Positions 3,846-25,995 of a stretch of DNA of 64,000 bases are shown in pieces. Position 1 is the first letter of the stretch, and each line of letters opens with the position of its first letter. The notes under the pieces are model-generated. The model saw only the letters and a program-made list of their open reading frames with translations. It had not been told where the DNA came from and searched no databases. The translations under genes were made by a program, and so were the position numbers. The DNA is taken from contig OZ243037.1 in NCBI GenBank assembly GCA_965212015.1, positions 640,001-704,000 of the forward strand. Reading direction: 5' to 3'. The stretch comes from Cenarchaeum sp. GTDB taxonomy: Archaea; Thermoproteota; Nitrososphaeria; Nitrososphaerales; Nitrosopumilaceae.

Positions 3846-3936
3846 TTCTATACAGGGGTAATTATATGCTCTTTTTAATCTATTGGCATATCAGGGCTTG
3901 TATTCATGTACAGTCTTCTTGGGAATCTGAGATCTA

Positions 3937-4902: not shown

Positions 4903-4903
4903 C

Positions 4904-7149: not shown

Positions 7150-7229
7150 CAGAGCAATATGATCAAATCAACGCCCACCTTTCCACGCTCAAAGAAACTC
7201 ATAATAATTCCCAAACAAGACATCACACA

Positions 7230-7763: not shown

Positions 7764-7773
7764 CTAGTCCGAT

Positions 7774-7920
7774 GATGGTCCTTGGGTAGTCGGGCTGGCC
7801 TGCCAGCCCGACGGTGTGGTGGTACGGGGCTCCCGTCAGGGAGCCCGGGGAAAAGACGTTGATGGAGCCGAGTGAGAGTTCGTTGTCGGGGGATTGTGAG
7901 GTAACTGCGAGCTGAAAATC
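7774..7920. repeat. Conserved hairpin-rich element, copy 1 of 5
   Basis: GTCGGGCTGG-cctg-CCAGCCCGAC stem (7789-7812), GGGCTCCC-gtca-GGGAGCCC stem (7827-7846), TGTGAGGTAACTGCGAG at 7895. Confidence 0.9.
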
Positions 7921-7937
7921 TGTTCGGAGAGTTTGAA

Positions 7938-8122
7938 AAAGGTGCAAAAGGGGTCAGTTAGTGACGCAAAATAAGTCACCGGAAAAGGAGTCAAAGGTGC
8001 AAAAGGGGTCAGTTAGTGACGGAAAATAAGTCACCGGAAAAGAAGTCAAAGGCGCTTTAGGGGTCGGAGAATTAGGGGTCGAAAGCGCCTTAGGGGTCGA
8101 CGATAGGCGCTTTAGGGGTCGG
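7938..8122. repeat. Iteron-like array 1 (55-bp period x2, then TTAGGGGTCG x4)
   Basis: GGTGCAAAAGGGGTC at 7941 and 7996; GTC motif spacing 22/33 bp. Confidence 0.85.
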
Positions 8123-8283
8123 ACATCGGTGGGGCTTGAACAGTTTTGATTTTTGTAATTGGATATCGTGTTGGTGATATGGAAAACCCAAGTGAACCTG
8201 ACTCCGCCTGACACAGGACTGTGATTGCCAAAGTAATACAGGCCGTATGATTCGAGGTCGGTCCGAGCCTACCCATCCTGTCA

Positions 8284-8443
8284 GGCCGGGACTCTGATTT
8301 GGGCGGTCGGGCCGGCTCACGGCCCGACGGTGTGATGGTACAAGGCTCCCAACGGGAGCCTTGGGAGATGACCTTGAAGGCCAGGATGAGGTCGTCATTG
8401 GAGGGTTTGTGAGGTAATGCAAGTCGAAAATCCGCGCGCGGGG
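8284..8443. repeat. Conserved hairpin-rich element, copy 2 (most diverged)
   Basis: GTCGGGCCG-gctca-CGGCCCGAC, GGCTCCC-aac-GGGAGCC, TGTGAGGTAA at 8408. Confidence 0.85.
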
Positions 8444-8459
8444 CGGAATCCCACGATGA

Positions 8460-8621
8460 AAATACATGGTTTCCATGGTTTTTTTACATGGATTCCATGT
8501 TCTGGAAAACAGGCAAAACATGGTTTCCGTGGCTTTTTTACATGGATTCCATGTTCTGGAAAACCTGTAAAACATGGTTTCCATGTTTTAAAAAACAGGC
8601 AAAACATGGATTACATGGTTT
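8460..8621. repeat. Iteron-like array 2 (palindromic ACATGGWTTCCATG units)
   Basis: Units at 8465, 8487, 8519, 8541, 8573, 8605 (spacing 22,32,22,32,32). Confidence 0.9.
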
Positions 8622-8786
8622 GACGCGGGTCTGAATGATTCCGGCCTCTACATGAATGACAAAAGACGTTAGGAAACAAGCCTCTGCCACTCGTTTATCC
8701 TGACCGTTTCCTGAATAGCTAGATTACATCTGGGGGCTAGGATGATCCTGATACCGTTGGCCAGTGCCAGCCTTGGTGTGTGGTTT

Positions 8787-8975
8787 GGGCCGGGACTCCG
8801 GCCCGGGATGATACTGGGCAAGAGGGCCGGCTCTGCCGGCCCGACGGTGTGGTGGAACGGGGCCTCCCGTCAGGGAGCCCCGGGAAAAAGACATTGAGAT
8901 TACTGAATCGTGGTTCGTCGTTGGGGGGTTTGTGAGGTAACTGCGAGTTGGAAATCCGCGCACGAGGCTTGAAAA
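8787..8975. repeat. Conserved hairpin-rich element, copy 3
   Basis: GGGCCGG-gact-CCGGCCC, GGGCCGGC-tct-GCCGGCCC, CTCCC-gtca-GGGAG, TGTGAGGTAACTGCGAG at 8931. Confidence 0.9.
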
Positions 8976-8977
8976 AT

Positions 8978-9135
8978 GGCACTTTTGCAGTCAAAAAAAT
9001 GTAGGCAAAAGCATTTTTGCAGTCAATTTTTGGCACTTTTGCAGTCAGTAAAAAGATGCCAAAAGCATTTTTGCAGTCAAAAAAATGCAGTCAAAAGCAC
9101 TTTTGCGGTCGAAAAACGACCCTTTTGCGGTCGAA
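8978..9135. repeat. Iteron-like array 3 (TTTTGCRGTC units)
   Basis: GCRGTC at 8987, 9019, 9041, 9073, 9105, 9127 (32,22,32,32,22), plus one off-lattice copy at 9087. Confidence 0.9.
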
Positions 9136-9233
9136 ATGGATCCGGATGACAGGACGGCTCAAAAGCCAGAGCAGATAACAGAGTCGACCTGCCATCAAGA
9201 TTGAGAGACTCCCCTTGGTGATGTGGGACCTGC

Positions 9234-9551
9234 GGGCCTTGGTGACCTGTACGGGCCTTGGTGACCTGTACGAGTGTGTACGGGCCTTGGTGACCTGTAC
9301 GAGTGTGTACGGGCCTTGGTGACCTGTACGGGCCTTGGTGACCTGTACGAGTGTGTACGGGCCTTGGTGACCTGTACGAGTGTGTACGGGCCTTGGTGAC
9401 CTGTACGAGTGTGTACGGGCCTTGGTGACCTGTACGAGTGTGTACGGGCCTTGGTGACCTGTACGAGTGTGTACGGGCCTTGGTGACCTGTACGAGTGTG
9501 TACGGGCCTTGGTGACCTGTACGAGTGTGTACGGGCCTTGGTGACCTGTAC
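9234..9551. repeat. Perfect tandem repeat: 29-bp unit GGGCCTTGGTGACCTGTACGAGTGTGTAC x9 plus three 19-bp truncated units
   Basis: Counted directly; units identical, no unique spacers. Confidence 0.95.
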
Positions 9552-9565
9552 GGACTCGTATCCTG

Positions 9566-9751
9566 TCCGGGCCGGGACTCCGGCCCGGATGGTTCTGGGC
9601 AAGAGGGCCGGCTCTGCCGGCCCGATGGTGTGGAGATGGGGGCTCCCGCCAGGGAGCCCGAGGAAGAGACGTTGAGATTACTGAATGGTTCGTCGTTTGT
9701 GGGTTTGTGAGGTAACTGCGAGTTGGAAATCCGCGCGCGGGGCTTGAAAAA
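9566..9751. repeat. Conserved hairpin-rich element, copy 4
   Basis: TCCGGGCCGG-gact-CCGGCCCGGA, GGGCCGGC-tct-GCCGGCCC, GGGCTCCC-gcca-GGGAGCCC, TGTGAGGTAACTGCGAG at 9706. Confidence 0.9.
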
Positions 9752-9899
9752 CGACCTCTTTGCGGTCGGTTTTCGACCCTTTTGCGGTCGAAAAAAAGAG
9801 GTCGAAAGCACTTTTGCGGTCGAAAAACGACCCTTTTGCGGTCGAAAAAAAGAGGTCGAAAGCACTTTTGCGGTCGAAAAGCGACCCTTTTGCGGTCGA
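9752..9899. repeat. Iteron-like array 4 (TTTGCGGTCG units, 54-bp period)
   Basis: GCGGTC at 9762, 9784, 9816, 9838, 9870, 9892 (22,32,22,32,22). Confidence 0.9.
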
Positions 9900-10127
9900 T
9901 ATGGTAGGATGACAGAGCGGCTCAGGAGTCGTAGTAAGTAACACCGAGTCGGCTGGCCATCAAGATTGGAACAGACCCATTGGTCATGTGGCCTGTGGCC
10001 AGCCTTGGTGATCTGTGGGAGTCGTGACTTTTCCAGATGGTTTTGGGTAAGATGACCGGCTCTGGCCGGCTTGGTGTGTGGTCCGGCCCGGATGATTCTA
10101 GGTAAGAGGGCCAGACCTGCCGGCCCG

Positions 10128-10265
10128 AGATGGTCCTTGGCTAGTCGGGCTGGCCTACAGCCCGACGGGATTTGGTATGAGGCTCCCGCCAGGGAGCCTT
10201 GGGGAAAAGACGTTGAGATTACTGAATCGTGGTTCGTCGTTTGTGGGTTTGTGAGGTAACTGCGA
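10128..10265. repeat. Conserved hairpin-rich element, copy 5 (degenerate partial modules upstream at ~10036-10128)
   Basis: GTCGGGCTG-gccta-CAGCCCGAC, GGCTCCC-gcca-GGGAGCC, TGTGAGGTAACTGCGA at 10250. Confidence 0.9.
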
Positions 10266-10309
10266 ACCTGCTGCTACAAACACGCGCGTGCGGGGGATAT
10301 TAGGCATAT

Positions 10310-10836
10310 TTTTGCGTACACTCAGTGTACCGTCACGTAGCACCCAGTGTACGCAAAAAGGGTACACTTGGTACACTTGGTGTACCCATACGTAGCACTT
10401 GGTGTACCCAGTGTACGCAAAAAGGGTACACTTGGTACACTTGGTGTACCCATACGTAGCACTTGGTGTACCCAGTGTACGCAAAAAGGGTACACTTGGT
10501 ACACTTGGTGTACCCATACGTAGCACTTGGTGTACCCAGTGTACGCAAAAAAATGCATTTAATGCATTCAAAAAATGCATTTAATGCACTCAGTGTACGC
10601 AAAAAAATGCATTTAATGCATTCAAAAAATGCATTTAATGCACTCAGTGTACGCAAAAAAATGCATTTAATGCATTCAAAAAATGCATTTAATGCACTCA
10701 GTGTACGCAAAAAAATGCATTTAATGCATTCAAAAAATGCACTTAATGCACTTTGTGCTACCTCACGTGGCTCTTTGTGCTACCCCCGCATAGCTCTTTG
10801 TGCTCTTTGTGCTACCCCACGTAGCTCTTTGTGTCC
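10310..10836. repeat. Composite iteron-like array 5: 64-bp x3 (10345-10536), 54-bp x4 (10537-10752), CTTTGTGCTAC units (10751-10836)
   Basis: CAGTGTACGC at 10345, 10409, 10473, 10537, 10591, 10645, 10699; ATGCATTTAATGCA at 22/32 spacing; CTTTGTG at 10751, 10773, 10805, 10827. Confidence 0.92.
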
Positions 10837-11056
10837 TTTTTACCCCAAGTTGATCTGTGGCAACAGATACAGAAATTAAAGATAAATTAAATCCCGTGCG
10901 GTCACACCAACATCTGTTTTCCCGCGCCCCAAAACCAATAATGATTTCCAAACAGGACTGGCAGAATCCAAGACATCAATCAAGTAAAGGCTCAGACGCC
11001 AGAGGCATGGCGTAAGAGTCATGCTCCTGTAACTTGTGCTCGTTGTACCGCCGACA

Positions 11057-12589
11057 CTAGGATTCCCGCGCGGTTGCCCGGCGCACAAGGAACCTGCCGT
11101 CGGAGAGCTCCGTGTCCACCTCCCACCCCTGGGCAGAATGCTCCAGCAGGCTCTGTTCATCCTCGATAATTCGGCTTTCATATGGGGCATCCGCCTTGGC
11201 AGGTCTTGCCGGTATTTCCTTGGGGACCGTGACAGAATCGTTTCGGATCAGGGAAGTCGGATCCATCCCGTACATCTTGGCCTGCTGCCGCCACAGGTTG
11301 AGTAGCATGTCCTTTTTGTTAGCGCCGTCGGCCTTGAGGTCCGTAGCCAGAAACGTCTGACTCTGCGCGTACGCGCGCCTCATGTCCTCCGTCATCTGCT
11401 CTGTGAGCCTGCCCTTGTTGGTGGTGTATCGAGCCTCCATGTCGCCCTTGTGTCCCATAAAGAATTGTCTGTATGCGTGCGTCATGCACCCGTGGCTTTC
11501 GGCCATGAGCATCTGCGTGTCAAAGTATGCCCTCAGGGCGTACGGGCGGATCTTCATCACGCCCCAGATCGTCCTCCGTATGCTCTCCGATATGGCCGGC
11601 GTGGTCAGAAATAATGTGTCCGATTTCTTACGCTGCCCCCTTTCCTGGTATCCATTGTTGAACGTAATGAGCGGCGAGTCCGGTTCCAGTATATCGCCGT
11701 GCGCGATACGCTGCCGCAGATATCCCAAAAGATACTCACATCCCTGCTTTGTCAGGAACGTAAAGTACTTGTTTTTGGTCTTGCTAAGCTGGGCGCGGAC
11801 GACAATCATTGCCGGCATCTTTTCAAACGACACCCTGTCGCCGTCGATGCGCAGTTCCGGCAGATCCGAGAGTTTCAGCCCGTCACCCTTGTCAGACGTG
11901 CCCATCACCTGGGGGCGGATGCCGGAGAATGCCATCATGCCTACGATGAGCTTTGTGCGCGGGGATCCTGCGCCTAGAATCTGATCAAGTTGCTCCTGCG
12001 TGGGGACCTGCTCGTCCTCTATGCTTACCGCAATGCTGGCGTTTCTCACCTTTATTTTGCGCCTTATCTCGATGTGGTTGTATTCAAGCCACGACTTTAT
12101 CGCCTTTATCATCCCCTCTGTGTAGCCCGGCGCGTAATTCTGTTTTTCCATCCACGAGACGTGATCAAGCAGAATGTTCTCCATGTCCATTGGATTGTCG
12201 CGTCCTATGGTAACCAAGTTTGTAGGAGTCTTGTCAACCCTGTGGCAGAACAGATTGAGTCTGCGCAGCCTTACCTTTGAGTTGAGTATGCTAGAGCGCG
12301 CACAGTTTTCATACCAGCGTCTAACGTCATCATCCTTCAATAGTATAACTGGAGCTTGTGTCGTCACCTGATTCCACCGGATGTTATCAAAACGCGTTCC
12401 CCTATTTTTCCTTTTTGTTGTACGATTTTTTTCGTTAGGAATTATATTAGAGGAGTTTTCATGTTGTGTAATAACCGCGCGCTTTTTTTCCGGTTCCCTG
12501 TCAGGGCGCCGTGAGTTTGCACTCTTTATTTGTAGGCGAGGCTTGCAGTCGGCTTTTGAATTTACAGATTTTGTTTTCTGTTTTTTCAT
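11057..12589 (-). CDS. Tyrosine recombinase / site-specific integrase (start uncertain)
   Basis: SGIRP (catalytic R), RPYALRAYF, FMGH, ARYT (catalytic Y). Confidence 0.88.
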   Translation of the reverse strand: MKKQKTKSVNSKADCKPRLQIKSANSRRPDREPEKKRAVITQHENSSNIIPNEKNRTTKRKNRGTRFDNIRWNQVTTQAPVILLKDDDVRRWYENCARSSILNSKVRLRRLNLFCHRVDKTPTNLVTIGRDNPMDMENILLDHVSWMEKQNYAPGYTEGMIKAIKSWLEYNHIEIRRKIKVRNASIAVSIEDEQVPTQEQLDQILGAGSPRTKLIVGMMAFSGIRPQVMGTSDKGDGLKLSDLPELRIDGDRVSFEKMPAMIVVRAQLSKTKNKYFTFLTKQGCEYLLGYLRQRIAHGDILEPDSPLITFNNGYQERGQRKKSDTLFLTTPAISESIRRTIWGVMKIRPYALRAYFDTQMLMAESHGCMTHAYRQFFMGHKGDMEARYTTNKGRLTEQMTEDMRRAYAQSQTFLATDLKADGANKKDMLLNLWRQQAKMYGMDPTSLIRNDSVTVPKEIPARPAKADAPYESRIIEDEQSLLEHSAQGWEVDTELSDGRFLVRRATARES

Positions 12590-12703
12590 ATTGAAAGCGC
12601 CACTAGACCCGCTTCCACTGTGGGTTCGGGTCTTTCCCTGGCAAAATGCCCACAAACCGGTATCCGCGGGTGATTAACGCCCCCGCTTTTGCTGTATCGG
12701 CAA

Positions 12704-13966
12704 CTATTCTGTTTGGCCCGTCTTGGCGCTCATCAGCACCTCTAGTACCCGGTCAAGCTGTTCTGGCGTTGCCTTTTCCATGACGTTCTGTATGTGGTGT
12801 CTCTGCTCCAGTGTGGGGTCTATCTTGCTCTGATCCAGATACTCCTCGGATCGCATGAATCCCTCGCGCATCTCGGCTGTCAGGACCTCTGGCAGTATGC
12901 TCTTGTTTGTCGTGTACCTTGACTCCATGCTGCCCTTGTGTCCCATGAAAAAGACCCTAAAGTCGTGGGCTATCTTTCCCTTGGACTCTGCAATTAGCAG
13001 CTGCGTGTCAAAGTACGCCCTTAGAACGTATGGCCTCCATGTGAATCTGGGCCTGAACGTCCTTCTTACCAGATCACTTATTTGCTGCGTGGGCAGAAAC
13101 GCCTTTCTTGTATTGACGCCCCTGTGCGTCTTGTAGATATAGTCGGGCGCTACAATTGGCGCATTATCGTGCAGTGATTCCCCGTGAACCAGCCTGTCGT
13201 TCAGGTATGCCACGATGTGGCTCGTTGCGGACTGTGTCGAGAATGTAAAGTACTGGTGGCGTGCCTTTGAGAGCTCGCGCCGTACTATGATTCTGTTTGG
13301 AATTCTAACGCACTTTGCCTTTCCCTGATGGATTACCAGATCCGGCAGATCCTTCATTTGCAGTCCGTCCGTTCCGTTATGGTTTCCAATGACCTGTGGT
13401 CTGAGGCCCGACTTTGCCATCAGCGATATTATCACCGACTCGCGCAGGCCGGCCCTGCTGTATATCTCGGTCATCTCTTGCCCCTCCGGGACGCGTTCGT
13501 TTTGAAGCGTAGGGGTATAGTTTGTGGACGTCACCTTGATCTTTCTTCGTATCTCCACATCAAAGTGTCTCAGCCACGACTTTACCGTCTTGATCTGCTC
13601 CTCAATGTATCCCGGGGAATAATTCTTGGACTCCATCATGGTGATGTGATCCTCAAGCAAGTCCGTTGCAGTTCTCAGATCCCTAGTTGCCAGATCCGCC
13701 AGCTGTATCGGTGTCATCTGGTGAATCTCGCAGAACCGTCCCAGTCTCCTGAGACGCCCATCTGCTGTGATGGGGCTTCCGCGCGCCAGATTATCATGCC
13801 ATCTTTTGATGTCCGTGTTGGCCAACAGCCTTGATTTTTTTGTCTGTTTGGCAGTATCTTTTGCGTATGGTTTTGTTTTTTCCATATCTGTCAGCCTCTC
13901 GGTTACATTCTCGGTATGGTATGGTTTTGCTATTTGACTTTTGAGCGCGTTTTCCATTGTTATCAT
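12704..13966 (-). CDS. Tyrosine recombinase / site-specific integrase, paralogue of 11057-12589
   Basis: SGLRP, RPYVLRAYF, FMGH, SRYT motifs. Confidence 0.9.
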   Translation of the reverse strand: MITMENALKSQIAKPYHTENVTERLTDMEKTKPYAKDTAKQTKKSRLLANTDIKRWHDNLARGSPITADGRLRRLGRFCEIHQMTPIQLADLATRDLRTATDLLEDHITMMESKNYSPGYIEEQIKTVKSWLRHFDVEIRRKIKVTSTNYTPTLQNERVPEGQEMTEIYSRAGLRESVIISLMAKSGLRPQVIGNHNGTDGLQMKDLPDLVIHQGKAKCVRIPNRIIVRRELSKARHQYFTFSTQSATSHIVAYLNDRLVHGESLHDNAPIVAPDYIYKTHRGVNTRKAFLPTQQISDLVRRTFRPRFTWRPYVLRAYFDTQLLIAESKGKIAHDFRVFFMGHKGSMESRYTTNKSILPEVLTAEMREGFMRSEEYLDQSKIDPTLEQRHHIQNVMEKATPEQLDRVLEVLMSAKTGQTE

Positions 13967-14024
13967 GTTATCTGATACAAAGCTTTATTTAAAGATTTAC
14001 CATGTAGCATGATACAGGCTGATC

Positions 14025-14312
14025 ATGGGCATATTTATAAAAAAAATCCACGGGGCGGAATACCTGTATTTTCTGGCAGGGGATTCCCAGTATTTCCTGG
14101 GAAGAAAGGACGATCTGGAAAACCTGAACATTCAGAATCTGCGCAAGGCTGTGCGGATTGCAGACAGGAACTTTGATAGGATTTTTGTAAAATACATCCG
14201 GGATCTGCTGAAAAATGTCAGGTACATGCCCGATGATGAGAGGGCCCGGTACCTGTCCGCGCGGATTGCAAACTTGGATTCTGCGTTAAGACAGCTCAAA
14301 AATACGCGATAA
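14025..14312 (+). CDS. Hypothetical protein divergent from the integrases
   Basis: 95 aa ATG ORF; N-terminal IKKIHGAEYLY...FLG beta-rich motif; TTTATTTAAA in the shared intergenic region. Confidence 0.65.
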   Translation: MGIFIKKIHGAEYLYFLAGDSQYFLGRKDDLENLNIQNLRKAVRIADRNFDRIFVKYIRDLLKNVRYMPDDERARYLSARIANLDSALRQLKNTR

Positions 14313-14334
14313 TCATGCGATTTTTTGCAAAAAA

Positions 14335-14496
14335 TTATGACTCGTTGCCGGCCTTGAGGTAGAGCCTGTCTCCTTCCCTCTCAAAGACGATCACATCACC
14401 CTTTTCGAACCTGCAGCTGTTTCGGACCCGTTTCGGGATGGTAATCTGGTACTTGTATGATACCACGGTTGTGCCTAGGATTTCCTTGTTATTCAT
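14335..14496 (-). CDS. AbrB/MazE/SpoVT-family DNA-binding protein (53 aa, not in ORF track)
   Basis: MNNKEILGTTVVSYKYQITIPKRVRNSCRFEKGDVIVFEREGDRLYLKAGNES; QITIPKxVR...GD motif. Confidence 0.88.
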   Translation of the reverse strand: MNNKEILGTTVVSYKYQITIPKRVRNSCRFEKGDVIVFEREGDRLYLKAGNES

Positions 14497-14557
14497 GCCT
14501 TACTTGTAGGAATCGTAGGAAAAACACATAAAGTATCCCCAAGAATGTAAAGATCAC

Positions 14558-16474
14558 TTGAAAAGTAAGGCAAAAAAGGCATCTCAGATGGCCAAATGTA
14601 CTACAATGCTAAAGTGGTATTTTCCACCAACAGGTGGTGGAGTAACTCAGGGATTTAATGATGGTTCACAAGAATTCTTCCGATCTAATGCATGGGAGCA
14701 GACCATAAGAGAGATAATTCAGAATTCACTTGATGCTGTAGATGATCGAAGAGACGGGCCAGTAAAAATAAACATCTCTGAAATAACGATACCTGCATCA
14801 GAGATAGGAGCCACTGATCTTGCTGGCCACATAAGCAAGGCTTTGGAACGCACTAGAAAACAAGAATCCACCACAGGGAGTAAATTTTACGAAAATGCAT
14901 TGAAGGTTTTAAATCAAAATGAGATCAAAATGCTTGCAATAACTGATACTAACACTACAGGTTTAGTGGATGAAAAATGGGATGCGCTGATATATGATGA
15001 AGGTACATCAAGTAAAGGTGGTATAAATGCAGCAGGAGGAAGTTTTGGCATTGGAAAAAATGCACCATATGTGGTTTCAGATTTAAAAACTGTATGTTAT
15101 TCCACACGATATCTAGGCAAGGGAAGAATTGAAAAGTTTATTGCTCGATGCAAGATTTCTGCACATGAGAATCCCGATGAATCTTCTAAAGAAATGCTAC
15201 AACACATAGGATTTGGAACTAAAACAAAATTAGCAAAAAATATTCGTCCTTTACCAACAGAAGGAAGTGACATTCATCAACTATTTCGTCTTGATGAATA
15301 TGGAAGTGGAATATTTATTATGGGATTTAATCCACAACTAAAAAATTGGATCAAAGTGGCCAAAAAATCTATAGCACATAATTTTTTTGTTGCAATACAT
15401 GAAAAGAAATTAGAAATTTATATAAATTCTGATCCGATAAACTATGAAACATTAGATGGTATATTTGAGGATGATCGTAAAAAAGAACCTACTCGTCACT
15501 ATTATCATATCATCCGTGATGATATTAAGAAAGAAATTGTAGAAGGAGATCTGGGAAAATTTACAGTACAAATAAATATTGATGATGAAGATGCACCAAA
15601 CCAAATTGCATATATAAACCGAAGAGGAATGATGGTAACTGACAAGCGTATTTTCGATGAAAATCCATTTTATACGGCAGTTGGAAAAGGTTGGGCCAAA
15701 TATGCAGTAGTAATTATGTCACATGATGATGCAACAGATATGAAAATACGTATGATGGAGCCGCCTAACCATCAATCAATCGAATACAAGCGCATCAATG
15801 ATCATAAAAAACGAGATTCTATGGAACGACAACTTCGTGTCATAAAAAATAAAATTACTGATATTATTAACAACGCAATTTCCGACAGTAATCATGAACA
15901 TGACATAAATCTATCAGAACTTGCAGACATATTGCCTTTTCCTGATGATTCAGGAAAAGAAGGTATTGAACAAAGTGAAAAAGATCAGTCTCTAGATCAT
16001 CATACTATAGAGTCTGGCACATCATCTCATATCGTAGATGATGATGGATTAGATTCAGGTAAAAAGTTAGGTGGGACCTCAGATACACATGGAAAGAATC
16101 ATAAATCTATTTCTGGTCGCAAAATAAGCAGTAAAGGAACACCAATTTTGCATCGTCAGCGAATTGTGCGCAGCAAGGATATACTCCGTGTTGCATTTAC
16201 ATCACGTCAAAATAATGGAAAACCAGTGTGCTTTGGCATCAAACCTGTAGGTGAAGAAAGAAAAAATGAAATCATGATTCCAATAACTTCGGCCCGTGTG
16301 GAAACACCATCGAATTTTACCATTAAAATGAATAACAATCGTATAACCATGACTCCAAAATATGATGAACGGGTTGTAATGGATCTAAAAATACCTCAAA
16401 CCAAGTCATATACAGGATATGAGATCATTGAAATAGTACAAAACAAAAAACCCTCAAAAGGTAATAAAAAATGA
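14558..16474 (+). CDS. GHKL-like ATPase domain protein
   Basis: REIIQNSLDA, ITDTNTTGL, GGSFGIGK motifs; first gene of an overlapping operon. Confidence 0.75.
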   Translation: MKSKAKKASQMAKCTTMLKWYFPPTGGGVTQGFNDGSQEFFRSNAWEQTIREIIQNSLDAVDDRRDGPVKINISEITIPASEIGATDLAGHISKALERTRKQESTTGSKFYENALKVLNQNEIKMLAITDTNTTGLVDEKWDALIYDEGTSSKGGINAAGGSFGIGKNAPYVVSDLKTVCYSTRYLGKGRIEKFIARCKISAHENPDESSKEMLQHIGFGTKTKLAKNIRPLPTEGSDIHQLFRLDEYGSGIFIMGFNPQLKNWIKVAKKSIAHNFFVAIHEKKLEIYINSDPINYETLDGIFEDDRKKEPTRHYYHIIRDDIKKEIVEGDLGKFTVQINIDDEDAPNQIAYINRRGMMVTDKRIFDENPFYTAVGKGWAKYAVVIMSHDDATDMKIRMMEPPNHQSIEYKRINDHKKRDSMERQLRVIKNKITDIINNAISDSNHEHDINLSELADILPFPDDSGKEGIEQSEKDQSLDHHTIESGTSSHIVDDDGLDSGKKLGGTSDTHGKNHKSISGRKISSKGTPILHRQRIVRSKDILRVAFTSRQNNGKPVCFGIKPVGEERKNEIMIPITSARVETPSNFTIKMNNNRITMTPKYDERVVMDLKIPQTKSYTGYEIIEIVQNKKPSKGNKK

Positions 16475-17307
16475 GTCATACGAACTTCTTGCTACCACAT
16501 CCAATAATTAAACCTGGAGGATTTGACTACAATGAAAATTGTCACTTTGACATAGAGATAAAACAGGCCACGACACTTGATGGAAATATCCACATTGAGA
16601 TATCATGTGATCTGTCCAGTTTTACTATAAATGATCTCATAAAGAAAGAAAAAGCAAAATTTTTTATTACTTTAAAATGTGTTAAAACCCATCAAAGAAT
16701 CACACATAGCTTTACAGAAACTTCCATGGTTTGGGATATTCCGATGTCTAACTGTGTCGATAAAATAAACATAACGCCATATGTGGCAACAACTGAGGAA
16801 ATACCAGCATTTTACTCCAAAGAACATGATGATGAAATTCAACAAATGATTCCTGATGGCGTAGATCTTCCGACAGGTGCCATTTTGGCAGTAGGAAAAT
16901 CACACGAAATCACGATTGATGCGATAGAAAAGATCCAAGCTGCCATCAAGATAATCCAAAATAAGGAATTGGAAGTAGGAACTTACGCCATAGACACCAG
17001 TGGCGATTATCTAGACATTCAAATGCATCCTAAAACACAAAACAGCATACGTAATATACACAACCAATCAGTAGAACTTTTGTATCCATCAATTTACCTG
17101 ACTGCCATCGAACAAGCCATACGTGATATGGAAAATTATAAAGATCGCAAATGGGCACAAGCTTTGCACAAAACTCTAGAAAAACACAATATTGAGATTG
17201 ATTATGATAAATTAAAGGAAGAAGCAAATAAGCATGCCCAGACAATACTGAACAAACCATTGGATCGCATCATACAATGGCACAATCGAGAGAATGAATA
17301 TGATTGA
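16471..17307 (+). CDS. Hypothetical protein
   Basis: 278 aa; stop/start overlaps with both neighbours as given in the ORF track. Confidence 0.8.
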   Translation: MSHTNFLLPHPIIKPGGFDYNENCHFDIEIKQATTLDGNIHIEISCDLSSFTINDLIKKEKAKFFITLKCVKTHQRITHSFTETSMVWDIPMSNCVDKINITPYVATTEEIPAFYSKEHDDEIQQMIPDGVDLPTGAILAVGKSHEITIDAIEKIQAAIKIIQNKELEVGTYAIDTSGDYLDIQMHPKTQNSIRNIHNQSVELLYPSIYLTAIEQAIRDMENYKDRKWAQALHKTLEKHNIEIDYDKLKEEANKHAQTILNKPLDRIIQWHNRENEYD

Positions 17308-18919
17308 AAGAGAACCCCTTTACAGATTTACCCATGAAGCATTTGAAATGTTATTCAAGAACTTTGAAAAACATCTTGAACATTACAAGAATCCTGATGC
17401 AGATTTTATCAAACTATTAACAGAGAATGGAATCAATAATTACAAAGAACCAATAATCGCGCATATCATTAATCCAATCAAACTTGAATTGACAGAGGGC
17501 AAACCATCCCATCTAGCAGACATTCAGGCACTCGATTTTTATAATTCCTTTGAAGGCATGACGCCTAGACTTGCGTCAGATCCACGTGTACTGGCATATC
17601 TGAATCATTTTTATTTTCACAAGTATGGCATTGCTCGCTGGCCGATATCTGCAAGCACAAAACCAGAACATATGCGTAGACATTGGCTTACGCGTAGCAC
17701 AGAAAATACTCACATATGGAAATCAAACATTTCGGGCAGAACCTGGTGGATTGCACATATGGCCATCAAGGCAGCAGAGTCTTCGGCCGGCACATTTGAT
17801 GCAAAGCAAGCATTGAAAAAATTTACAGAAGCTCCAGAATATTACCATCGCACCATGGAATATGCCATACTCAAAAATCATACGCTTATGGCAGAATTCA
17901 TCAGAGCATTACACAGGGAGGCAGAGGGTATAAACCGTGATGGATACATAGCCATGGCAAAGGAATTAAACCTGGAGGCTGGTGCAAGGCTAATTGATTC
18001 GCTGGACAGACAATACCTGCGTAAACTAGTACAGCGTGCAGCAGATCGTCAGATGTGCAATCCAAAATCTGTTACAAATCGCAAATATATTCATAATGTG
18101 AAAAAATTCAAAGTGTTGAGTTTGGGAGCTGGAGCACAGTCTACCGTGTTGGCGCTCATGGCAGAAGAGGGATGGAATGGACTTGAAAAACCAGATCTAG
18201 CTATATTTGCAGATACTCAATGGGAACCACCGAATGTATACGAGCACCTAGATTGGTTAGAAAAACAGCTATCGTATAAGGTAATTCGAGTATCTGCAGG
18301 AAACATACGTGAGAACATACTAAACGGTGTCAATTCAGATGGAGACAAATTTATGGACATACCGGCATTTTTAGTAAATCCTGATGGAAGTAAATCCGTG
18401 GCCCGCAGACAATGCACTACGCATTATAAAATAAGACCCATACACAAGGAGCTTAGAAAACACCTCGGCATACCAACCGGTCGACGTGCTCCAAAAGATA
18501 TTCAGGTAGAAATGTGGCTGGGTATTAGTGCAGATGAATCAAATAGAATTAAACCTAGCAGAGATGAATGGATCGACAATCGATATCCACTTATTGAAAA
18601 GGACATGACCCGGGCCAACATATACAATTGGTTTAGTGAGAGGTATCCGGATCGTCGTTTGCCTCGCAGTGCATGCGTAGGATGTCCTTACCACAACAAC
18701 ATGGAGTGGAAATGGATCAAAGAAAACGATCCGGATTCATTTGAGGAAGCAGTCAATGTTGACTGGTCGCTTCGTAATGTTCAAAAGACACGTGGTACAC
18801 TCAAAGGAGATGCGTACTTGCATCACACGCGCAAACAGTTAAACAAAGTGGATTTTAGCAAGACAGAAAATTATGATGACTATATGGCGAGCGAATGTGA
18901 GGGACTCTGTGGTGTCTGA
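17294..18919 (+). CDS. Fusion: DUF6339-like N-terminal domain + PAPS-reductase-like PP-loop domain with Cys clusters
   Basis: N-term TPRLASDPRVLAYLNH..ARWP..ISGRTWW; C-term LSLGAGAQST, AIFADTQWEP, RQCTTHYKI, WLGISADE, YPL, SACVGCP, ECEGLC. Confidence 0.75.
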   Translation: MNMIEREPLYRFTHEAFEMLFKNFEKHLEHYKNPDADFIKLLTENGINNYKEPIIAHIINPIKLELTEGKPSHLADIQALDFYNSFEGMTPRLASDPRVLAYLNHFYFHKYGIARWPISASTKPEHMRRHWLTRSTENTHIWKSNISGRTWWIAHMAIKAAESSAGTFDAKQALKKFTEAPEYYHRTMEYAILKNHTLMAEFIRALHREAEGINRDGYIAMAKELNLEAGARLIDSLDRQYLRKLVQRAADRQMCNPKSVTNRKYIHNVKKFKVLSLGAGAQSTVLALMAEEGWNGLEKPDLAIFADTQWEPPNVYEHLDWLEKQLSYKVIRVSAGNIRENILNGVNSDGDKFMDIPAFLVNPDGSKSVARRQCTTHYKIRPIHKELRKHLGIPTGRRAPKDIQVEMWLGISADESNRIKPSRDEWIDNRYPLIEKDMTRANIYNWFSERYPDRRLPRSACVGCPYHNNMEWKWIKENDPDSFEEAVNVDWSLRNVQKTRGTLKGDAYLHHTRKQLNKVDFSKTENYDDYMASECEGLCGV

Positions 18920-19241
18920 AATCGTATCACAACTAATGTTGAAAAAAATTCCTTTCGACTATGATTTTCACAATCATTTAAACAATTCTGGTGGATTGTA
19001 TTGCTTTTGGTTGCGCAATAGTTGTCTTTATGTGGGCATGAGTGAGGATCTAAAGAGGCGTATTGCACAACATAGCCATAAGGAAGATAATCCGGAATTG
19101 ATCAAATATTTCAGAACATGTCCAGATGAAATCGAAATATCCATAGTGTATCTAGATCTTACTGCAAACAAGCTCAGAAACATCGAATCAAGAGCCATAC
19201 TAGAATTACATCCAGTGGCCAATAGGCAAGGAATTTCTTAG
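18912..19241 (+). CDS. GIY-YIG nuclease
   Basis: GLYCFW...LYVGMS..LKRRIAQH...E...N motif; GTG overlaps upstream stop. Confidence 0.75.
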   Translation: MSEIVSQLMLKKIPFDYDFHNHLNNSGGLYCFWLRNSCLYVGMSEDLKRRIAQHSHKEDNPELIKYFRTCPDEIEISIVYLDLTANKLRNIESRAILELHPVANRQGIS

Positions 19242-19289
19242 GTATGATCATGCCATTTGAATATCTTTTACTTTCCATGGAGATATGTC

Positions 19290-20549
19290 ATGACTAGCTC
19301 ATATCCTGCACTACGAGGAAAATTTGGAAAGACAGATTATTTTTTGACTGCCATGCCAGTAGGAGAATTGATCAGTCGTGTCACATTCCCAATAGATCTT
19401 CCAGGCTGGGAGAACCGCTCCATAGAGGAGAGATTTCAGCGAAAGATCGATATAAGGAGAATTAGACGTGACATTGCTCCATATTTTGCAAATGATGAGA
19501 ATAGATTTTCTGGTGCACTGGTACTGGCAGTACTAAATTCTGATAAAATGATACTAGAATCATTACAAGATATTGCAGGAGTCAGTAATAATATCCCAAA
19601 ATTGTATAATAGTGTTATCGGTGATATGGGATTCCTGATAATGTCGGGAGATGAAGTTTTTGTTCCACTTGACGGACAGCATAGGGCTAAGGCATTCAAA
19701 CTTGCAATAGAAGGCTATAAGGATAGTAGTAAGGTAGCCCCATTAATACGGCCTAATCCAGATCTGGCAAAGGACAAAGTCGCTGTGATATTGGTTCGTT
19801 TTGACGACTTGATGTCCAGATATATATTCAACAAGATAAACCGATACGCAAAGCCTACCACCAAGGCTGACAAATTGATTACTGACGATGATAATGCCGT
19901 AGCAGTAATAACAAGGCAGATGATAAGTGACGGTGTCATTCCGGAACGTCTAGTGAACATAGACACAAACTCACTTAGCAAAACAATGCACGAATTTACA
20001 ACACTTTCTACGTTTTATGATGCCAACATGTACCTTCTGTCTGGATTACAGGTTGCCAGTATAGCAAATCCAGAAAAAATGTCCAAACCTGAAAGGGAGA
20101 TGCGATTAACAGAAGTAAGCGCAGAATGGAAGCGTTTGATATCTGGAATTGGTTTGTGGAAAAAAGCCCTCAAGGATCCATCCATAAAAGGGGATGACAT
20201 ACGCAAAAAGATCCGCAAGGAATACTTGCTAGGTAAACCCATCGGTCAGCTCTCGCTGGTAGGCGGATACGCCTTTACATGTCAGAGGCACAGGAATGAG
20301 GTGGATAGAGATCTCCTAATAAGACGACTAGATAAGATAGATTGGAGGGTGCGCACAAAGATGTGGTCAGGAGTGCTGATCCGTCAAAACGGCAGGATCA
20401 TGTCGGGAAGACCGACAGCAAAAAATGCCATCAAGTTCATAGCTTATCTCATAGGTGCTGAGCTGACAAAACTAGAGAAGGACAGCATTTTAGGATGGAT
20501 TTATGGCGACAGATGGAAAAAGAATGTTCTTCCAGAACCGATCAAATGA
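19290..20549 (+). CDS. DndB-family / DGQHR-domain protein
   Basis: ERFQRKID, PLDGQHR, IFNKINRYAKP motifs. Confidence 0.85.
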   Translation: MTSSYPALRGKFGKTDYFLTAMPVGELISRVTFPIDLPGWENRSIEERFQRKIDIRRIRRDIAPYFANDENRFSGALVLAVLNSDKMILESLQDIAGVSNNIPKLYNSVIGDMGFLIMSGDEVFVPLDGQHRAKAFKLAIEGYKDSSKVAPLIRPNPDLAKDKVAVILVRFDDLMSRYIFNKINRYAKPTTKADKLITDDDNAVAVITRQMISDGVIPERLVNIDTNSLSKTMHEFTTLSTFYDANMYLLSGLQVASIANPEKMSKPEREMRLTEVSAEWKRLISGIGLWKKALKDPSIKGDDIRKKIRKEYLLGKPIGQLSLVGGYAFTCQRHRNEVDRDLLIRRLDKIDWRVRTKMWSGVLIRQNGRIMSGRPTAKNAIKFIAYLIGAELTKLEKDSILGWIYGDRWKKNVLPEPIK

Positions 20550-20615: not shown

Positions 20616-22037
20616 TTATGGCAAAGGAATTGGGTTGAATCCGTACTCATTACAAATACCATAATGGTTTATGATGACAGGTTCCCATCCCCTACCTATA
20701 TCTAATTGATCTAAAGAATTTTTTAACTCTTCTATCTGATCATAATACAGTGCATTTCTATCGATCAAGCTATCCAGAAATTTTTCCTCTGGTAACGAAT
20801 TGCTTTTTTTACAATTGCATTTTTGACACGATAAAACCAAATTCCATGGATGATCGTCATAAATATAGGACCATGGAATAAAGTGATCCACATGTGTAGA
20901 ATCATATTTTAGTTTGTTTTTACAGTAAAAACATTGATCAACATATTCAGAATATATTTTTCTGTATTCTGTCAATGACCCTCTTACTGGATCATTATGT
21001 TCTAGCTTTGCAACCAATCTAGGTAATGAATGGTTAATTTTTTCCAAGAATTTTGCCCACTGTGCAAGAACTACTTGGGATAATATCCTGTTGTTTTTAC
21101 GGAAAAAACTAAAAGCTTCTGGCTTTAGATATAGCATTTTTGCAGAGTTATCATAATTATAAAATATCCTGATATCTTCTGAATCATTACTAGTTGTGAT
21201 ATTTTGAAATGCAGGAATCACAATTGATTTTTTTCCTCTGATTGTACCAAATACGTTTTTGAGTATTTCTCCTTCCGCATTTTTGATGTCTTTTTTCTTA
21301 AGAAGTTCAAAATCAGCTGGAGGATTATTCCCAAAAACACTGTTTATTGCTTTTATTACATTTGGTTTTCCGCTTGTCCTAAAATCCTGTTTCATTTTGA
21401 ATTTGTATTCTTGATGCCAGTAATATTTTAGAAATTTACTTGCAAAATATTGATATGGTATTTCATGTATTTGTTTCTCTTCCGTAGTATCTTTGCAATA
21501 ATCTAACAGTGATTTAGCAAGGGTAAATTTGTACGTATTAGATTTGGGCGAATCTGCAATTATGGATAAAAATGCTCGTTTCAGATCTTTTTCTGAAACA
21601 TCTGATTCTATATACGGGTTTGTATCTTGTATGAATCTCTTTTCACCATTAGTCATTACCGGTTTTTTAATTGGTTTATTTGATAGCTTGTCAAGTCGGA
21701 ATATTCCAAAATGTTTTGAACTGTTCCAATCTATCAGCTTTTTGTTGCTTCGTAGCTTGGAAATCTCTTGATCTATGATATTTGGAAATTTATTAGATGT
21801 ACGATATGATCCCCACATACTAGGATCTAATTTTAATTCTCTTCCTACTGATGATATCAGATCAGTTCTGCTATGCCAAATTTTCTCATTTTGATGCTTT
21901 AATTGTAATTTATCTCCTGACTTGTCATCACGATGATTTGTAATGGTAGGTATGGTCTTGCCTTTTTGGTTTAGAACATATAGGACTAGCTCAGATGTGA
22001 ATTTACGAGGTATTTTACCAGATCGACTTATTGCCAT
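20616..22037 (-). CDS. HNH endonuclease with N-terminal accessory domains
   Basis: NTYKFTLAKSL; CFYC...HVDHFIPWS...NLVLSCQKCNCKKSN. Confidence 0.88.
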   Translation of the reverse strand: MAISRSGKIPRKFTSELVLYVLNQKGKTIPTITNHRDDKSGDKLQLKHQNEKIWHSRTDLISSVGRELKLDPSMWGSYRTSNKFPNIIDQEISKLRSNKKLIDWNSSKHFGIFRLDKLSNKPIKKPVMTNGEKRFIQDTNPYIESDVSEKDLKRAFLSIIADSPKSNTYKFTLAKSLLDYCKDTTEEKQIHEIPYQYFASKFLKYYWHQEYKFKMKQDFRTSGKPNVIKAINSVFGNNPPADFELLKKKDIKNAEGEILKNVFGTIRGKKSIVIPAFQNITTSNDSEDIRIFYNYDNSAKMLYLKPEAFSFFRKNNRILSQVVLAQWAKFLEKINHSLPRLVAKLEHNDPVRGSLTEYRKIYSEYVDQCFYCKNKLKYDSTHVDHFIPWSYIYDDHPWNLVLSCQKCNCKKSNSLPEEKFLDSLIDRNALYYDQIEELKNSLDQLDIGRGWEPVIINHYGICNEYGFNPIPLP

Positions 22038-22953: not shown

Positions 22954-23973
22954 TTATTCCTCATCATTTTTCATCCATTTCTCACTCATGACCGACTGTT
23001 GGTAACCTATCTTCGCAATACCCGTCTTGGCATCACATAGTTGAACACGATTGATTTTAAGACGTACAGAGTATGTATGAGTCAAGTCCTTGCTTTCCAG
23101 GACACATTTGTGTAGTGTGGTAATTATTTCATTCTTGGCACCTAGTTCAGCTTCAAGGCTGTAAGGTGTATCCAAATTTAGCAATTTGTTATATTCTCCA
23201 TACAGCTTCATAATATTCTCCATTAATTCTTCTGGTACGTCTATTATGCTCAATCCTAAATCATCCTTTGCTTCCCTTCTGCCTATCAGATAATTATGAG
23301 AGAATCTTTCCTCTATGAGAATTTTTACAATGGTGTCTATTTTCTTCTCATCGGTCATATGTTGTTTGAGCAGGGTTTTTGACAGGAACCTAATCTCGTT
23401 TCTTGATCTATTCACGGCACCAAGAACCAGCGGATGGAGTCCGCCTGCCAACACGGCCATGATCTTGGTCAGCTCCTCCTCCGAATCAGTTTTTGCCTCT
23501 TTTTTTGCAAGATCAAAAAAACTTACAACATCTTCCACATTGACTGGCATGTTGACCTGTATTGTGGGATTTTGTGGGTGTGGGAATTTTGGTCCCAGTG
23601 GATGTGTCAGGGAGGGATCCACGGGGCCGAGTTGCCCAATCTTTGACATGATTATTGAATTGGCCCCAAGGGTCATCAGAGTTCCGGTGCTTAGGCACTT
23701 GAATGGGACTATCATTCCATATTCCTTACAATACTCCCTTATCAAATTCACAATCCCATATCCAGATATTGTAATTCCGCCCGTAGTGTAAATCAATAGG
23801 TTGATTTTTTGAGTAGATTTTATCTTGTCCAAATGCTTATAGATGAACGGAATCACATCCGATGAAATTTTTGCCTCTAATCCTTTTCGGTCTCCAGTCA
23901 TGTAAACTAGAATCTTGGAATTTGTCTGTTCTTCAATCTTTTTGATCAGTTCCAGACGATTTTGTCGTCCCAT
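22954..23973 (-). CDS. SDH/ClpP-class serine protease-like protein
   Basis: YTTGG, CLSTGTLMTLGA, LGPVDP, SHNYLIGRREA motifs. Confidence 0.8.
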   Translation of the reverse strand: MGRQNRLELIKKIEEQTNSKILVYMTGDRKGLEAKISSDVIPFIYKHLDKIKSTQKINLLIYTTGGITISGYGIVNLIREYCKEYGMIVPFKCLSTGTLMTLGANSIIMSKIGQLGPVDPSLTHPLGPKFPHPQNPTIQVNMPVNVEDVVSFFDLAKKEAKTDSEEELTKIMAVLAGGLHPLVLGAVNRSRNEIRFLSKTLLKQHMTDEKKIDTIVKILIEERFSHNYLIGRREAKDDLGLSIIDVPEELMENIMKLYGEYNKLLNLDTPYSLEAELGAKNEIITTLHKCVLESKDLTHTYSVRLKINRVQLCDAKTGIAKIGYQQSVMSEKWMKNDEE

Positions 23974-24864: not shown

Positions 24865-25995
24865 TTACAGTGTAAAGTTTGTAGCAGACTCATAGTTCTT
24901 GTTAAGATCCGGAAATTGTGCAAACAGCTCGTCCAGATATTCCTGCGTATCGTTAAACGGCCTTAGCAGCTCCAGATGGTTTGCATCCGGATAGTGCTCC
25001 AGCAAAAACTCGCCAAACTCCTTTATCGGAGGTGATCCGTTTCTCTCTTCAGGCGGGATGTAATTCGGCGAGTTTAGTATGTCGGTTGAGTTGTATTGCT
25101 TGCCTACATATACCGGTGCATTTTCAAGCAGCTCATCAGAAAGACCACCCACAATATCTCCCTCATATACTCTTGCCGTGCCGTTGTCAATTATAAAAGT
25201 ATAATTCGGTCCGACATTGTGGTAAAATAATATGGAAAGATATCCTACCGGAGGAAATCTGGGATCAGGCTCGTTGATTACCACCGGAATTTGTAGGTAA
25301 AGTTTTTGTGTATTGTTAAATGGCAGATCAATTCTGCCTTCAGATGTGACGACAGGCGGCCTATAATCATAATGCGTATAGTCTTCTGCCCTGAATAAAT
25401 CCTCGTGATTAATCGAGATAAACGTCGAATATGAGGCATGTATGGCATCACCGTACGGATACGTCCGTTCATAGTCGTCATATTCCAGCCTCTCCTCATA
25501 GTCATCATAACCGGCATCCTTGTCCGGTACCACATATTCGTATTCGAGATCGATTAAAAATTCCTCGCCTATGTTGACTATTTTTGGTGCCTTGAATGTG
25601 TACTTGGGCCAGTACTCATATTTGAAAACAGGACCCATCATCATTTCAAATCCAATCGCCTCTGATGATTCATCCAGATTGGATGTCATTATCGTCTCTC
25701 CGACTGTCATGTTCTTGTCTTGGATTGTGTAATCATCAGTCTGTACATTTCGTTCATCCAAAATGGGCACACCCCATCCCCTCTCCAAGAGCTTGGCCAG
25801 CGTATCATCAAAGACGCAGGCCAGCTTTCCATGCGGTGATTCTATCAGATTTTTATCCTCGCTGCATTGTATGGCAAATGCGTCGGGTAGAGCAATCATG
25901 CCGGCTGTCAATACTGCCAGAATTCCTAGGATTTTGAACATTGTTATTGAATATGGCAAAATCATACTAATAAATGAATCATACAGATTCCACAA
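24865..25995 (-). CDS. Secreted/surface hypothetical protein (thaumarchaeal type)
   Basis: Signal peptide ending AFA; C..LACV...KLLERGW motif; acidic composition; start likely at MFKILG. Confidence 0.7.
   Translation of the reverse strand: MWNLYDSFISMILPYSITMFKILGILAVLTAGMIALPDAFAIQCSEDKNLIESPHGKLACVFDDTLAKLLERGWGVPILDERNVQTDDYTIQDKNMTVGETIMTSNLDESSEAIGFEMMMGPVFKYEYWPKYTFKAPKIVNIGEEFLIDLEYEYVVPDKDAGYDDYEERLEYDDYERTYPYGDAIHASYSTFISINHEDLFRAEDYTHYDYRPPVVTSEGRIDLPFNNTQKLYLQIPVVINEPDPRFPPVGYLSILFYHNVGPNYTFIIDNGTARVYEGDIVGGLSDELLENAPVYVGKQYNSTDILNSPNYIPPEERNGSPPIKEFGEFLLEHYPDANHLELLRPFNDTQEYLDELFAQFPDLNKNYESATNFTL

Follow-up and report, generated by a model that had tools for sequence, protein, structure and literature searches.

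Why is an enzyme domain of the phosphoadenosine phosphosulfate (PAPS) reductase fold joined in one chain to DUF6339, and what may the joined protein do? This question is raised by an archaeal gene at positions 17294..18919 of the stretch of DNA analysed here (the window), which comprises 64,000 nucleotides (nt) of a Cenarchaeum sp. genome (GenBank assembly GCA_965212015.1, contig OZ243037.1) and corresponds to positions 640001-704000 of the single 1.76-Mb contig that makes up the genome. An earlier note, made from the sequence, had described the gene as a fusion and had proposed DUF6339 as the target-recognition module of an enzyme related to DndC and SspD. We propose, by analogy with known systems and with a probability of roughly 0.55, that the protein is the C subunit (DUF6339) of a candidate defence unit of the PDC-M33 type joined to an SspD-like enzyme of mobile elements, and would thus be a phosphorothioate (PT)-like writer fused to an effector complex.

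The fusion gene is natural and conserved

The fusion gene (17294..18919, + strand) starts with ATG and encodes 541 amino acids (aa). As the earlier note had read it, the frame is single and uninterrupted, with no internal stop in the forward translation; the reverse-strand reading is rich in stops. All of the motifs named in that note were found: the variant nucleotide-binding loop LSLGAGAQS at residues 275-283 (18116..18142, +), Cys374 in RQCT (18413..18415, +), Cys461-x-x-Cys464 in CVGC, followed by PY (18674..18685, +), and the C-terminal ECEGLC tail with C535 and C539 (18893..18910, +), the protein ending in ECEGLCGV. The three cysteine motifs are invariant in an alignment of 57 sequences (A1).

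A protein search recovered 1925 relatives of the fusion at E<=1e-3, and our statements on fused relatives cover the best 120 of them. These proteins are 503-567 aa in length, cover 92-100% of the query and hold both domains in one chain, and every one of them carries SxGxGxQS, RxCT, CxxCPY, DTxWE and the terminal ECxGxC. We concluded that the fusion is a natural, conserved two-domain architecture. Where the relatives are named by their sources, the labels are 'DUF6339 family protein' (Pirellulales, Thaumarchaeota and Chloroflexi) or 'hypothetical protein' (Cenarchaeum). The Pfam domain PF01507 is among the precomputed domains of just 1 of the 120; therefore, the enzyme half of the fused relatives is generally unannotated.

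Contigs from two DNA runs of one study (X1 and X2) contained no indels over 17000-19300, a region in which depth was present in 30 of 30 bins for X1 and 20 of 30 for X2; the assembly itself may derive from these runs, which hence lend the fusion no independent support. The X1 contigs show alternative letters at ten places (17575, 18331-18406, 19019 and 19220), exclusively substitutions, which suggests co-existing strains in the X1 sample. No match to the DNA of the fusion gene was found in the E. coli genomes searched.

The C-terminal half is an SspD-like domain of the PAPS-reductase fold

Residues 263-541 (18080..18919, +) form an SspD-like domain of the PAPS-reductase fold, belonging to a family of mobile elements, PHROG 424 ('phosphoadenosine phosphosulfate reductase'), which gave the strongest match to this half (residues 238-541, E 2.7e-48). 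The PADLOC model SspD matched residues 273-493 with E 2.1e-18 and 65 bits (model positions 2-202 of 277). Pfam PAPS_reduct (PF01507) matched residues 274-398 with E 1.4e-4 and 22.3 bits, just below its cut-off of 22.5, and the NCBIfam CysH equivalog matched the fusion weakly, with 15.6 bits versus a cut-off of 154. Sequence searches of the PDB with the fusion protein and with the profile of the stand-alone family (A6) gave no match.

The AlphaFold2 model of the full-length protein, built on A1, has a pLDDT of 89.7 and a pTM of 0.78; disorder (pLDDT<50) is confined to residues 1-3 and to the cysteine tail at 532-541. VIA-wide, which on this model covered the C-half only, gave as top matches 7rge (Z 12.4, root-mean-square deviation 3.9, 167 aligned), 6vpu (Z 11.1), 2goy and 7lhr (both Z 10.6), and the [4Fe-4S] enzymes NcsA (6scy, Z 10.4) and LarE (8cnz, Z 10.3) came below the PAPS and adenosine phosphosulfate (APS) reductases. 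Foldseek on the full-length model agreed with the reductase fold, weakly (best E 5.5e-4). Both the fold and the PHROG 424 match bear out the earlier description of this half as PAPS-reductase-like.

The non-canonical loop and the set of cysteines pointed out in that description proved to be hallmarks of the family. The loop, SxGxGxQS, occurs in 120 of 120 fused proteins, in 112 of 120 short forms and in 78 of 80 metagenome homologues. Besides the fusion, three genes of the PAPS_reduct type are present in the genome: a true SspD close to the window on its upstream side, an APS reductase, in which the motifs SSFGAED, CC, CxxC and ECGMH were recognised by eye, and a third gene with SGGKDS, which from its sequence looks like a tRNA thiolase. 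Compared by BLASTP, the fusion protein and the genome's own SspD are 23% identical (E 1e-11), VLSLGAGAQST lying over VCGISGGKDSS (the loop itself aligning with GISGGKDSS). Of the kinship to DndC and SspD suggested at the outset, the SspD part is thus supported by both PADLOC and BLASTP and the DndC part found no model match at E<=1.

When the genome's SspD and APS reductase were included in a four-way alignment, the DT motif, C374, K-I-x-P, D414 and C461/C464 were invariant. C374 pairs with C83 of SspD and with the CC pair of the APS reductase, and C461/C464 pair with the CxxC of both; since the alignment columns coincide, the cysteines of the fusion are the family equivalents of those of SspD and APS reductase. 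The ECGMH near the C-terminus of the APS reductase may be compared with the ECxGxC tail. It is plausible from these positions that C374, C461 and C464 bind an iron-sulfur (Fe-S) cluster.

Among solved chains, the SspD of the genome matched in sequence only chain C of PDB entry 21fy, named 'PptA' (E 1.6e-9). The entry did not match the family profile of the C-half at E<=0.1, and our literature search found no paper on it.

The N-terminal half is DUF6339

Residues 1-262 (17294..18079, +), which are mostly helical, correspond to DUF6339, the PADLOC model PDC-M33C. Pfam DUF6339 (PF19866) matched residues 81-247 with E 1.5e-20 and 74.1 bits against a gathering cut-off of 23.2, which confirms the identity proposed for this half, and PDC-M33C matched residues 9-253 with E 2.2e-25. 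The AlphaFold2 model of the N-half alone has a pLDDT of 82.4. With this half, VIA-wide gave a top Z of 4.7 and 0 chains at Z>=5, Foldseek gave a best E of 0.54 in the PDB and 0.41 in BFVD and nothing at E<=1e-3, and the ESM Atlas gave no usable named match. The absence of a fold match is not proof of a new fold.

A HMMER search with the N-half recovered 252 clusters at E<=1e-3. Among the 152 representatives examined, 106 are stand-alone proteins of 200-299 aa, and the reductase half is present in 17. The distribution of DUF6339 is sporadic: of the 401 genomes of the phylum, two encode it, the source genome being one of them. No match was obtained from plasmid records queried with the N-half or from viral contigs queried with two stand-alone DUF6339 proteins.

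The fusion gene lies in a conserved five-gene cassette

Upstream of the fusion gene is a PDC-M33A-like gene (14558..16474, +; PADLOC PDC-M33A E 1.7e-84), which encodes 638 aa from a TTG start. Because the conserved sequence starts at M17, the true start is probably the ATG at 14606. Its orthologues in four related loci, L001-L004, are 48-55% identical to it, and the motifs REIIQNSLDA, DTNTTGL and GGSFGIGK, read by eye, are invariant in five orthologues; from these motifs alone, M33A is possibly a GHKL-type ATPase. In the ESM Atlas it matched hypothetical clusters only. The PDC-M33B-like gene (16471..17307, +; 278 aa; PADLOC PDC-M33B E 1.6e-32) shares 4 nt with M33A and 14 nt with the fusion gene. 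Orthologues of M33B are present in L001-L004, L031 and L011, and a profile search of the PDB with M33B gave no match.

Downstream, a small GIY-YIG nuclease-like gene (18873..19241, +; 122 aa as listed) overlaps the 3' end of the fusion gene by 47 nt, and in view of this overlap its start may lie downstream of the listed one. Its score with Pfam GIY-YIG was 22.4 bits versus a cut-off of 22.6, and a profile of six orthologues matched, over positions 48-130, the N-terminal endonuclease domain of UvrC (1ycz, E 2.4e-4). Orthologues occur in L001-L004 and L048. The last gene encodes a DndB-like (ParB-type) protein of 430 aa with a DGQHR domain (19257..20549, +; Pfam DndB E 4.3e-36). It contains the DGQHR motif and scored 83.9 bits with TIGR03187 (DGQHR), above the cut-off of 58.85, and 86.7 bits with the DndB equivalog TIGR03233, below the cut-off of 328; its orthologues in L001-L004 are 50-56% identical to it. 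For the cassette genes other than the fusion, PADLOC reported PDC-M33A/B and DndB, together with weak matches of the GIY-YIG-like gene to UzuA (E 0.0026) and of M33B to RT_UG6 (E 0.0016).

All five genes recur, with their order unchanged, in 4 of 4 related loci, L001-L004, which come from Nitrosopumilaceae and Cenarchaeum metagenome-assembled genomes. M33A and M33B stand upstream of the fused gene in each of the seven loci having upstream DNA (L011 and L031 included), and the GIY-YIG-like and DndB-like genes stand downstream in five of the six loci having downstream DNA, the exception being L031.

The two modules also occur apart

On a Planococcus plasmid (L094), M33A (2.4e-36) and M33B (6.2e-23) accompany a DUF6339 protein of 254 aa, and no reductase, GIY-YIG or DndB-like gene lies within 9 kb of this trio, which adjoins an AlwI/Vsr/Dcm restriction-modification system. 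Conversely, locus L048 (1-3155) encodes a stand-alone reductase of 315 aa, followed by the GIY-YIG-like and DndB-like genes, and the 411 nt upstream of the reductase contain no open frame and no DUF6339 signal. On the strength of these two loci, the protein of the window can be seen as the join of two modules that are able to exist apart. Since DUF6339 is mostly stand-alone and the plasmid trio does without the reductase, DUF6339 appears to be a tether and not a recognition module.

A link to known PT systems was observed at L031. Here the block consists of HNH, M33A, M33B and the fusion; DndD/PbeC-like, DndH-like and MzaA-like genes precede it, and it is followed by a gene for a 797-aa protein, by PbeA (2.6e-167) and by a PbeC-like gene (1.1e-52). 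PbeABCD is described as the PT-dependent effector of DndCDEA-PbeABCD in archaea (PMC6459918). Of the observations made, the gene content of L031 points most directly to an M33-fusion block that may take the place of a PT writer.

Relatives of the reductase half on phages and plasmids

Short relatives of the C-half are numerous: 1491 proteins at E<=1e-3, 201 plasmid records, 52 phage records and 537 metagenome stretches. The metagenome scan was made with the C-half alignment A6, and the statements on loci cover the best 80 of the 537 stretches. In 78 of these 80 loci the reductase stands alone, with none of the cassette partners. Neighbours were annotated in 20 of the 28 metagenome loci of at least 9 kb, comprising 19 stand-alone loci and L031. 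A C5 DNA methylase was found within three genes on either side of the reductase in 10 of the 19, and genes for DNA polymerase A, UvrD-type helicase and primase are common around the stand-alone reductases.

In ten phage-like contigs (L016, L018, L024, L025, L039, L043, L050, L061, L084 and L088) the reductase adjoins a C5 cytosine DNA methylase or lies one gene from it, and a replication module of primase, UvrD-type helicase and DNA polymerase A surrounds the pair. The leading regions of two conjugative alphaproteobacterial plasmids hold stand-alone relatives annotated as 'hypothetical protein' (L005 5962-6837 and L006 5968-6834); on both, an ArdC-like gene (zincin-like metallopeptidase or DUF1738) directly precedes the reductase.

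A phylogeny including the phage homologues, as the earlier note had proposed, was obtained as a quick IQ-TREE run of 91 rows with SH-aLRT support only, a careful search being unfinished. In this tree the fused C-halves group with 28 chromosomal proteins of 289 aa (SH-aLRT 96), to the exclusion of the phage and plasmid forms, and seven short forms are nested among the fused C-halves.

Proposed function and alternative explanations

We propose that the DNA of the cell would receive a sulfur mark, most likely a phosphorothioate, through the joint action of the reductase domain, the GIY-YIG protein as a nickase and the DndB-like protein as a regulator or loader. A cysteine desulfurase would donate the sulfur to the flexible cysteines at the C-terminus; these would hand it on to an Fe-S cluster bound by C374, C461 and C464, from which it would reach the activated DNA. 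DUF6339 would tether this writer to the M33A/M33B machine, the choice of target not being its task, and the machine would act on unmarked DNA. The scheme is drawn by analogy with the Ssp logic (nickase, ATPase, SspD and desulfurase) and with the BrxP fusion, as these are described in PMC12914056 and PMC12839542. The fusion would then probably link the marking of own DNA to the surveillance of foreign DNA.

Several observations weigh against this proposal. The PT product of the cassette is assigned by analogy. The genome already has a canonical SspABCD, which leaves the need for a second PT writer to be explained. No match to DndC was found at E<=1 in NCBIfam or PADLOC, nor any to BrxP in the PADLOC scan at E<=1. 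None of the 320 family members checked has the canonical PP-loop SGGxDS, and the loop of the fusion has more in common with SSFGAED of the APS reductase encoded by the genome, which makes the use of ATP uncertain. As a GHKL ATPase, M33A found no match in Pfam (E<=10), by phmmer against the PDB or in a PDB profile search, and an hhalign comparison with the window's own HATPase_c_3 protein gave a probability of 0.4. Neither an SspB-, SspC- or DndD-like partner nor a cysteine desulfurase was found in the cassette or in the scanned flanks of L001, L003 and L004. The trio without a reductase (L094) and the module without the trio (L048) are represented by one locus each, and the Pbe association likewise by L031 only, which lacks the GIY-YIG-like and DndB-like genes. 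The literature search returned no mention of DUF6339 or PDC-M33, the latter being a candidate system only; a search combining PT, GIY-YIG and PAPS reductase returned one review and nothing else.

The alternative that survives best, although we regard it as unlikely, is that the C-half performs a chemistry other than DNA phosphorothioation, such as thiolation of bases or RNA or some other modification, or that it uses a sulfonucleotide (APS/PAPS-like) instead of ATP; the cassette would then be a different modification system or a nucleotide-based defence system. It draws on the same loop, which has the form SxGxGxQS, is not SGGxDS in any member checked and is similar to that of the APS reductase, on the terminal ECxGxC that recalls ECGMH, on the top fold matches to PAPS/APS reductases with tRNA thiolases and LarE almost as high, and on the placing of the family by PHROGs under auxiliary metabolic genes. 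Its weakness is that the contexts of the family are those of DNA and not of sulfur assimilation, for which the genome has its own APS reductase: the relatives sit in phage replication and modification modules with C5 DNA methylases near in 10 of 19 loci, they have ArdC-like neighbours in the leading regions of conjugative plasmids, and DndB-like and GIY-YIG genes accompany the fusion here. Moreover, SspD is the best-scoring named DNA enzyme.

Somewhat less likely still is the explanation closest to the earlier note, in which the protein is a self-contained enzyme of the DndC/SspD type, its cysteines holding an Fe-S cluster and DUF6339 serving to recognise the DNA target. The two domains do share one chain throughout the best 120 relatives, the pTM of the full-length model suggests a defined packing of the halves, SspD and APS reductase have cysteines at the aligned positions, and a precedent is described in BrxP, which joins an SspD-like domain to the DNA-binding DUF4007 (PMC12839542, PMC12914056). 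The role given to DUF6339, however, found no support. A recognition module of the reductase is difficult to reconcile with the presence of the reductase half in only 17 of 152 DUF6339 representatives, with the Planococcus trio and the L048 module, in which each half occurs without the other, and with stand-alone reductases in 78 of the best 80 metagenome loci; neither a DNA-binding fold nor any other known fold was matched by VIA-wide or by Foldseek in the PDB and BFVD.

A C-half that lacks catalytic activity and serves as a nucleotide-binding or sensor domain is improbable in our view, and so is a cassette that works for a mobile element, as an anti-defence or addiction module, and not in host defence. 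The non-canonical PP-loop, the horizontal acquisition of the island and the stand-alone relatives in phages and beside ArdC-like anti-restriction genes in plasmid leading regions would fit such roles. On the other side, five cysteines together with DTxWE, K-I-x-P and ADE vary little or not at all among fused and stand-alone forms, a pattern that suggests catalysis, and the cassette lies among defence genes in three loci (the window, L001 and L031). Finally, an artefact in which a stop codon was lost or a frameshift arose in the assembly can be dismissed, in spite of some short forms near the fused clade (P0122-P0130 and P0245-P0248) that could be split genes or fragments, because 120 full-length, motif-complete relatives come from many sources, the fused form recurs in 4 of 4 archaeal loci and in L011 and L031, and DNA contigs span the junction without indels.

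As to what a PT-like writer fused to the PDC-M33 unit would mean, we suggest tentatively that the cassette may be a fifth enzymatic route to sulfur modification of the DNA backbone, or a new sulfur-dependent DNA mark, with a writer whose nucleotide site is not a PP-loop and which is fused through a DUF6339 of new fold to an ATPase machine policing unmarked DNA. If this is true, thousands of PHROG 424 'PAPS reductases' of phages and plasmids would be DNA-marking enzymes for counter-defence, the known PT-writing systems would gain a compact addition present in archaea and bacteria, and a first functional handle on PDC-M33 and DUF6339 would be available. The question also bears on a large unexplained SspD-like family, whose 52 phage and 201 plasmid records share the loop and cysteines and have DNA methylase or ArdC-like neighbours. 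The separate occurrence of the trio and of the modification module amounts to a natural dissection of the system, open to simple genetics.

Genomic island and neighbouring genes

The cassette is horizontally acquired and lies within a defence island. The GC content is 0.35-0.40 over 14-24 kb of the window versus about 0.53 elsewhere, and the limits of the island were defined by GC content alone; no tRNA was found in the window, and no convincing direct repeats flank the island. A convergent HNH-nuclease gene (20616..22037, - strand; Pfam HNH_4 E 2.5e-11) follows the cassette in the same low-GC block and is regarded here as a neighbour of it; it has no counterpart in L001-L004, L011, L031, L048 or L094. 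At L001, PDC-M68 lies beside the cassette.

The 18 kb directly upstream of the window (L093, genome positions 622001-640000) contain a complete Ssp cluster of the canonical kind at 7160-17998, consisting of SspA (1.3e-137), SspB (8.3e-89), SspC (1.1e-302), a 191-aa open reading frame, a convergent HNH gene and SspD (9.2e-110), the last scoring 364.7 bits with PADLOC over model positions 1-276. After SspD comes a DUF262/GmrSD_N protein with HEC-06, Orf5 and SspE-like matches, which reaches the end of L093 at the window edge. SspABCD thus lies about 20 kb upstream of the cassette, and two SspD-type genes fall within about 22 kb of the genome.

Further genes of the window were noted, all on the - strand. 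A four-gene low-GC block at 483-5677 encodes an SF2 helicase (ResIII/DEAD, weakly PbeA-like, 6.6e-24), a GHKL ATPase with HATPase_c_3 (MzaB-like), a PLD-like protein and a protein with DUF2196 and Schlafen AlbA_2; its helicase-GHKL-PLD module (483-4902) has no counterpart in L001-L004, L011, L048 or L094, and L031 gave a weak helicase match only. At 11057-13966, in a stretch of normal GC between two low-GC defence blocks, lies a tandem pair of paralogous genes (532 and 420 aa, 41% identical; DNA repeats D3 and D5) with no Pfam or PADLOC match and a weak XerA-like one (E 0.0034). At the far end of the low-GC block are genes for an SDH-type ClpP-like protease (22954-23973; Pfam 2.1e-18, phrog_11747 1e-40) and for a protein with a WING-49 domain (24865-25995; 1e-7).

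Comparison with known systems

Four PT-writing systems, Dnd, Ssp, Tdp and BREX type 4, are described in PMC12914056. With SspD of the SspABCD system, the fusion shares the fold family, the DT, RxCT, K-I-x-P and ADE motifs, the CxxC positions and the C-terminal cysteine pair. It differs in its loop (GAGAQS versus SGGKDS), in its score with the SspD model (65 bits versus 364.7 for the genome's true SspD), in being joined to DUF6339, and in its partners, which are M33A, M33B, GIY-YIG and DndB-like proteins and not SspB and SspC.

BrxP of BREX type 4, a fusion of an SspD-like domain with the SspB-like DUF4007, is described as required for PT synthesis and as working with BrxC (PMC12914056). The two proteins are alike in that a writer of the PAPS-reductase type is fused to a component of its own defence system; the partner here, however, is an N-terminal DUF6339 and not DUF4007, and the cassette is without BrxC, PglZ and BrxL. 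The DndB-DndC pair resembles the cassette in placing the gene of a ParB-type DGQHR protein beside that of an enzyme of the PAPS-reductase family, but DndC is not matched, the DndB equivalog scored 86.7 bits against 328, and the cassette is without DndD and DndE.

CysH (APS/PAPS reductase) provides the top structural matches and has in common with the fusion a loop other than SGGxDS, the positions of the Fe-S cysteines and a terminal cysteine tail; the fusion is set apart from it by the equivalog score (15.6 bits versus 154), by its context of defence and mobile elements and by the separate true APS reductase of the genome. PHROG 424 is the best family match, with loop and cysteine motifs alike in 78-80 of 80 metagenome homologues, whereas its phage and plasmid proteins are stand-alone, about 270-300 aa in length, and outside the group of fused and 289-aa chromosomal proteins in the tree. 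With PDC-M33, the likeness extends over three consecutive overlapping genes, which match the models A (1.7e-84), B (1.6e-32) and C (2.2e-25). In comparison with the C models, which have 247-312 positions, the size of stand-alone DUF6339, the protein described here carries C plus an extra enzyme domain of 280 aa, and two further conserved genes follow C in the cassette.

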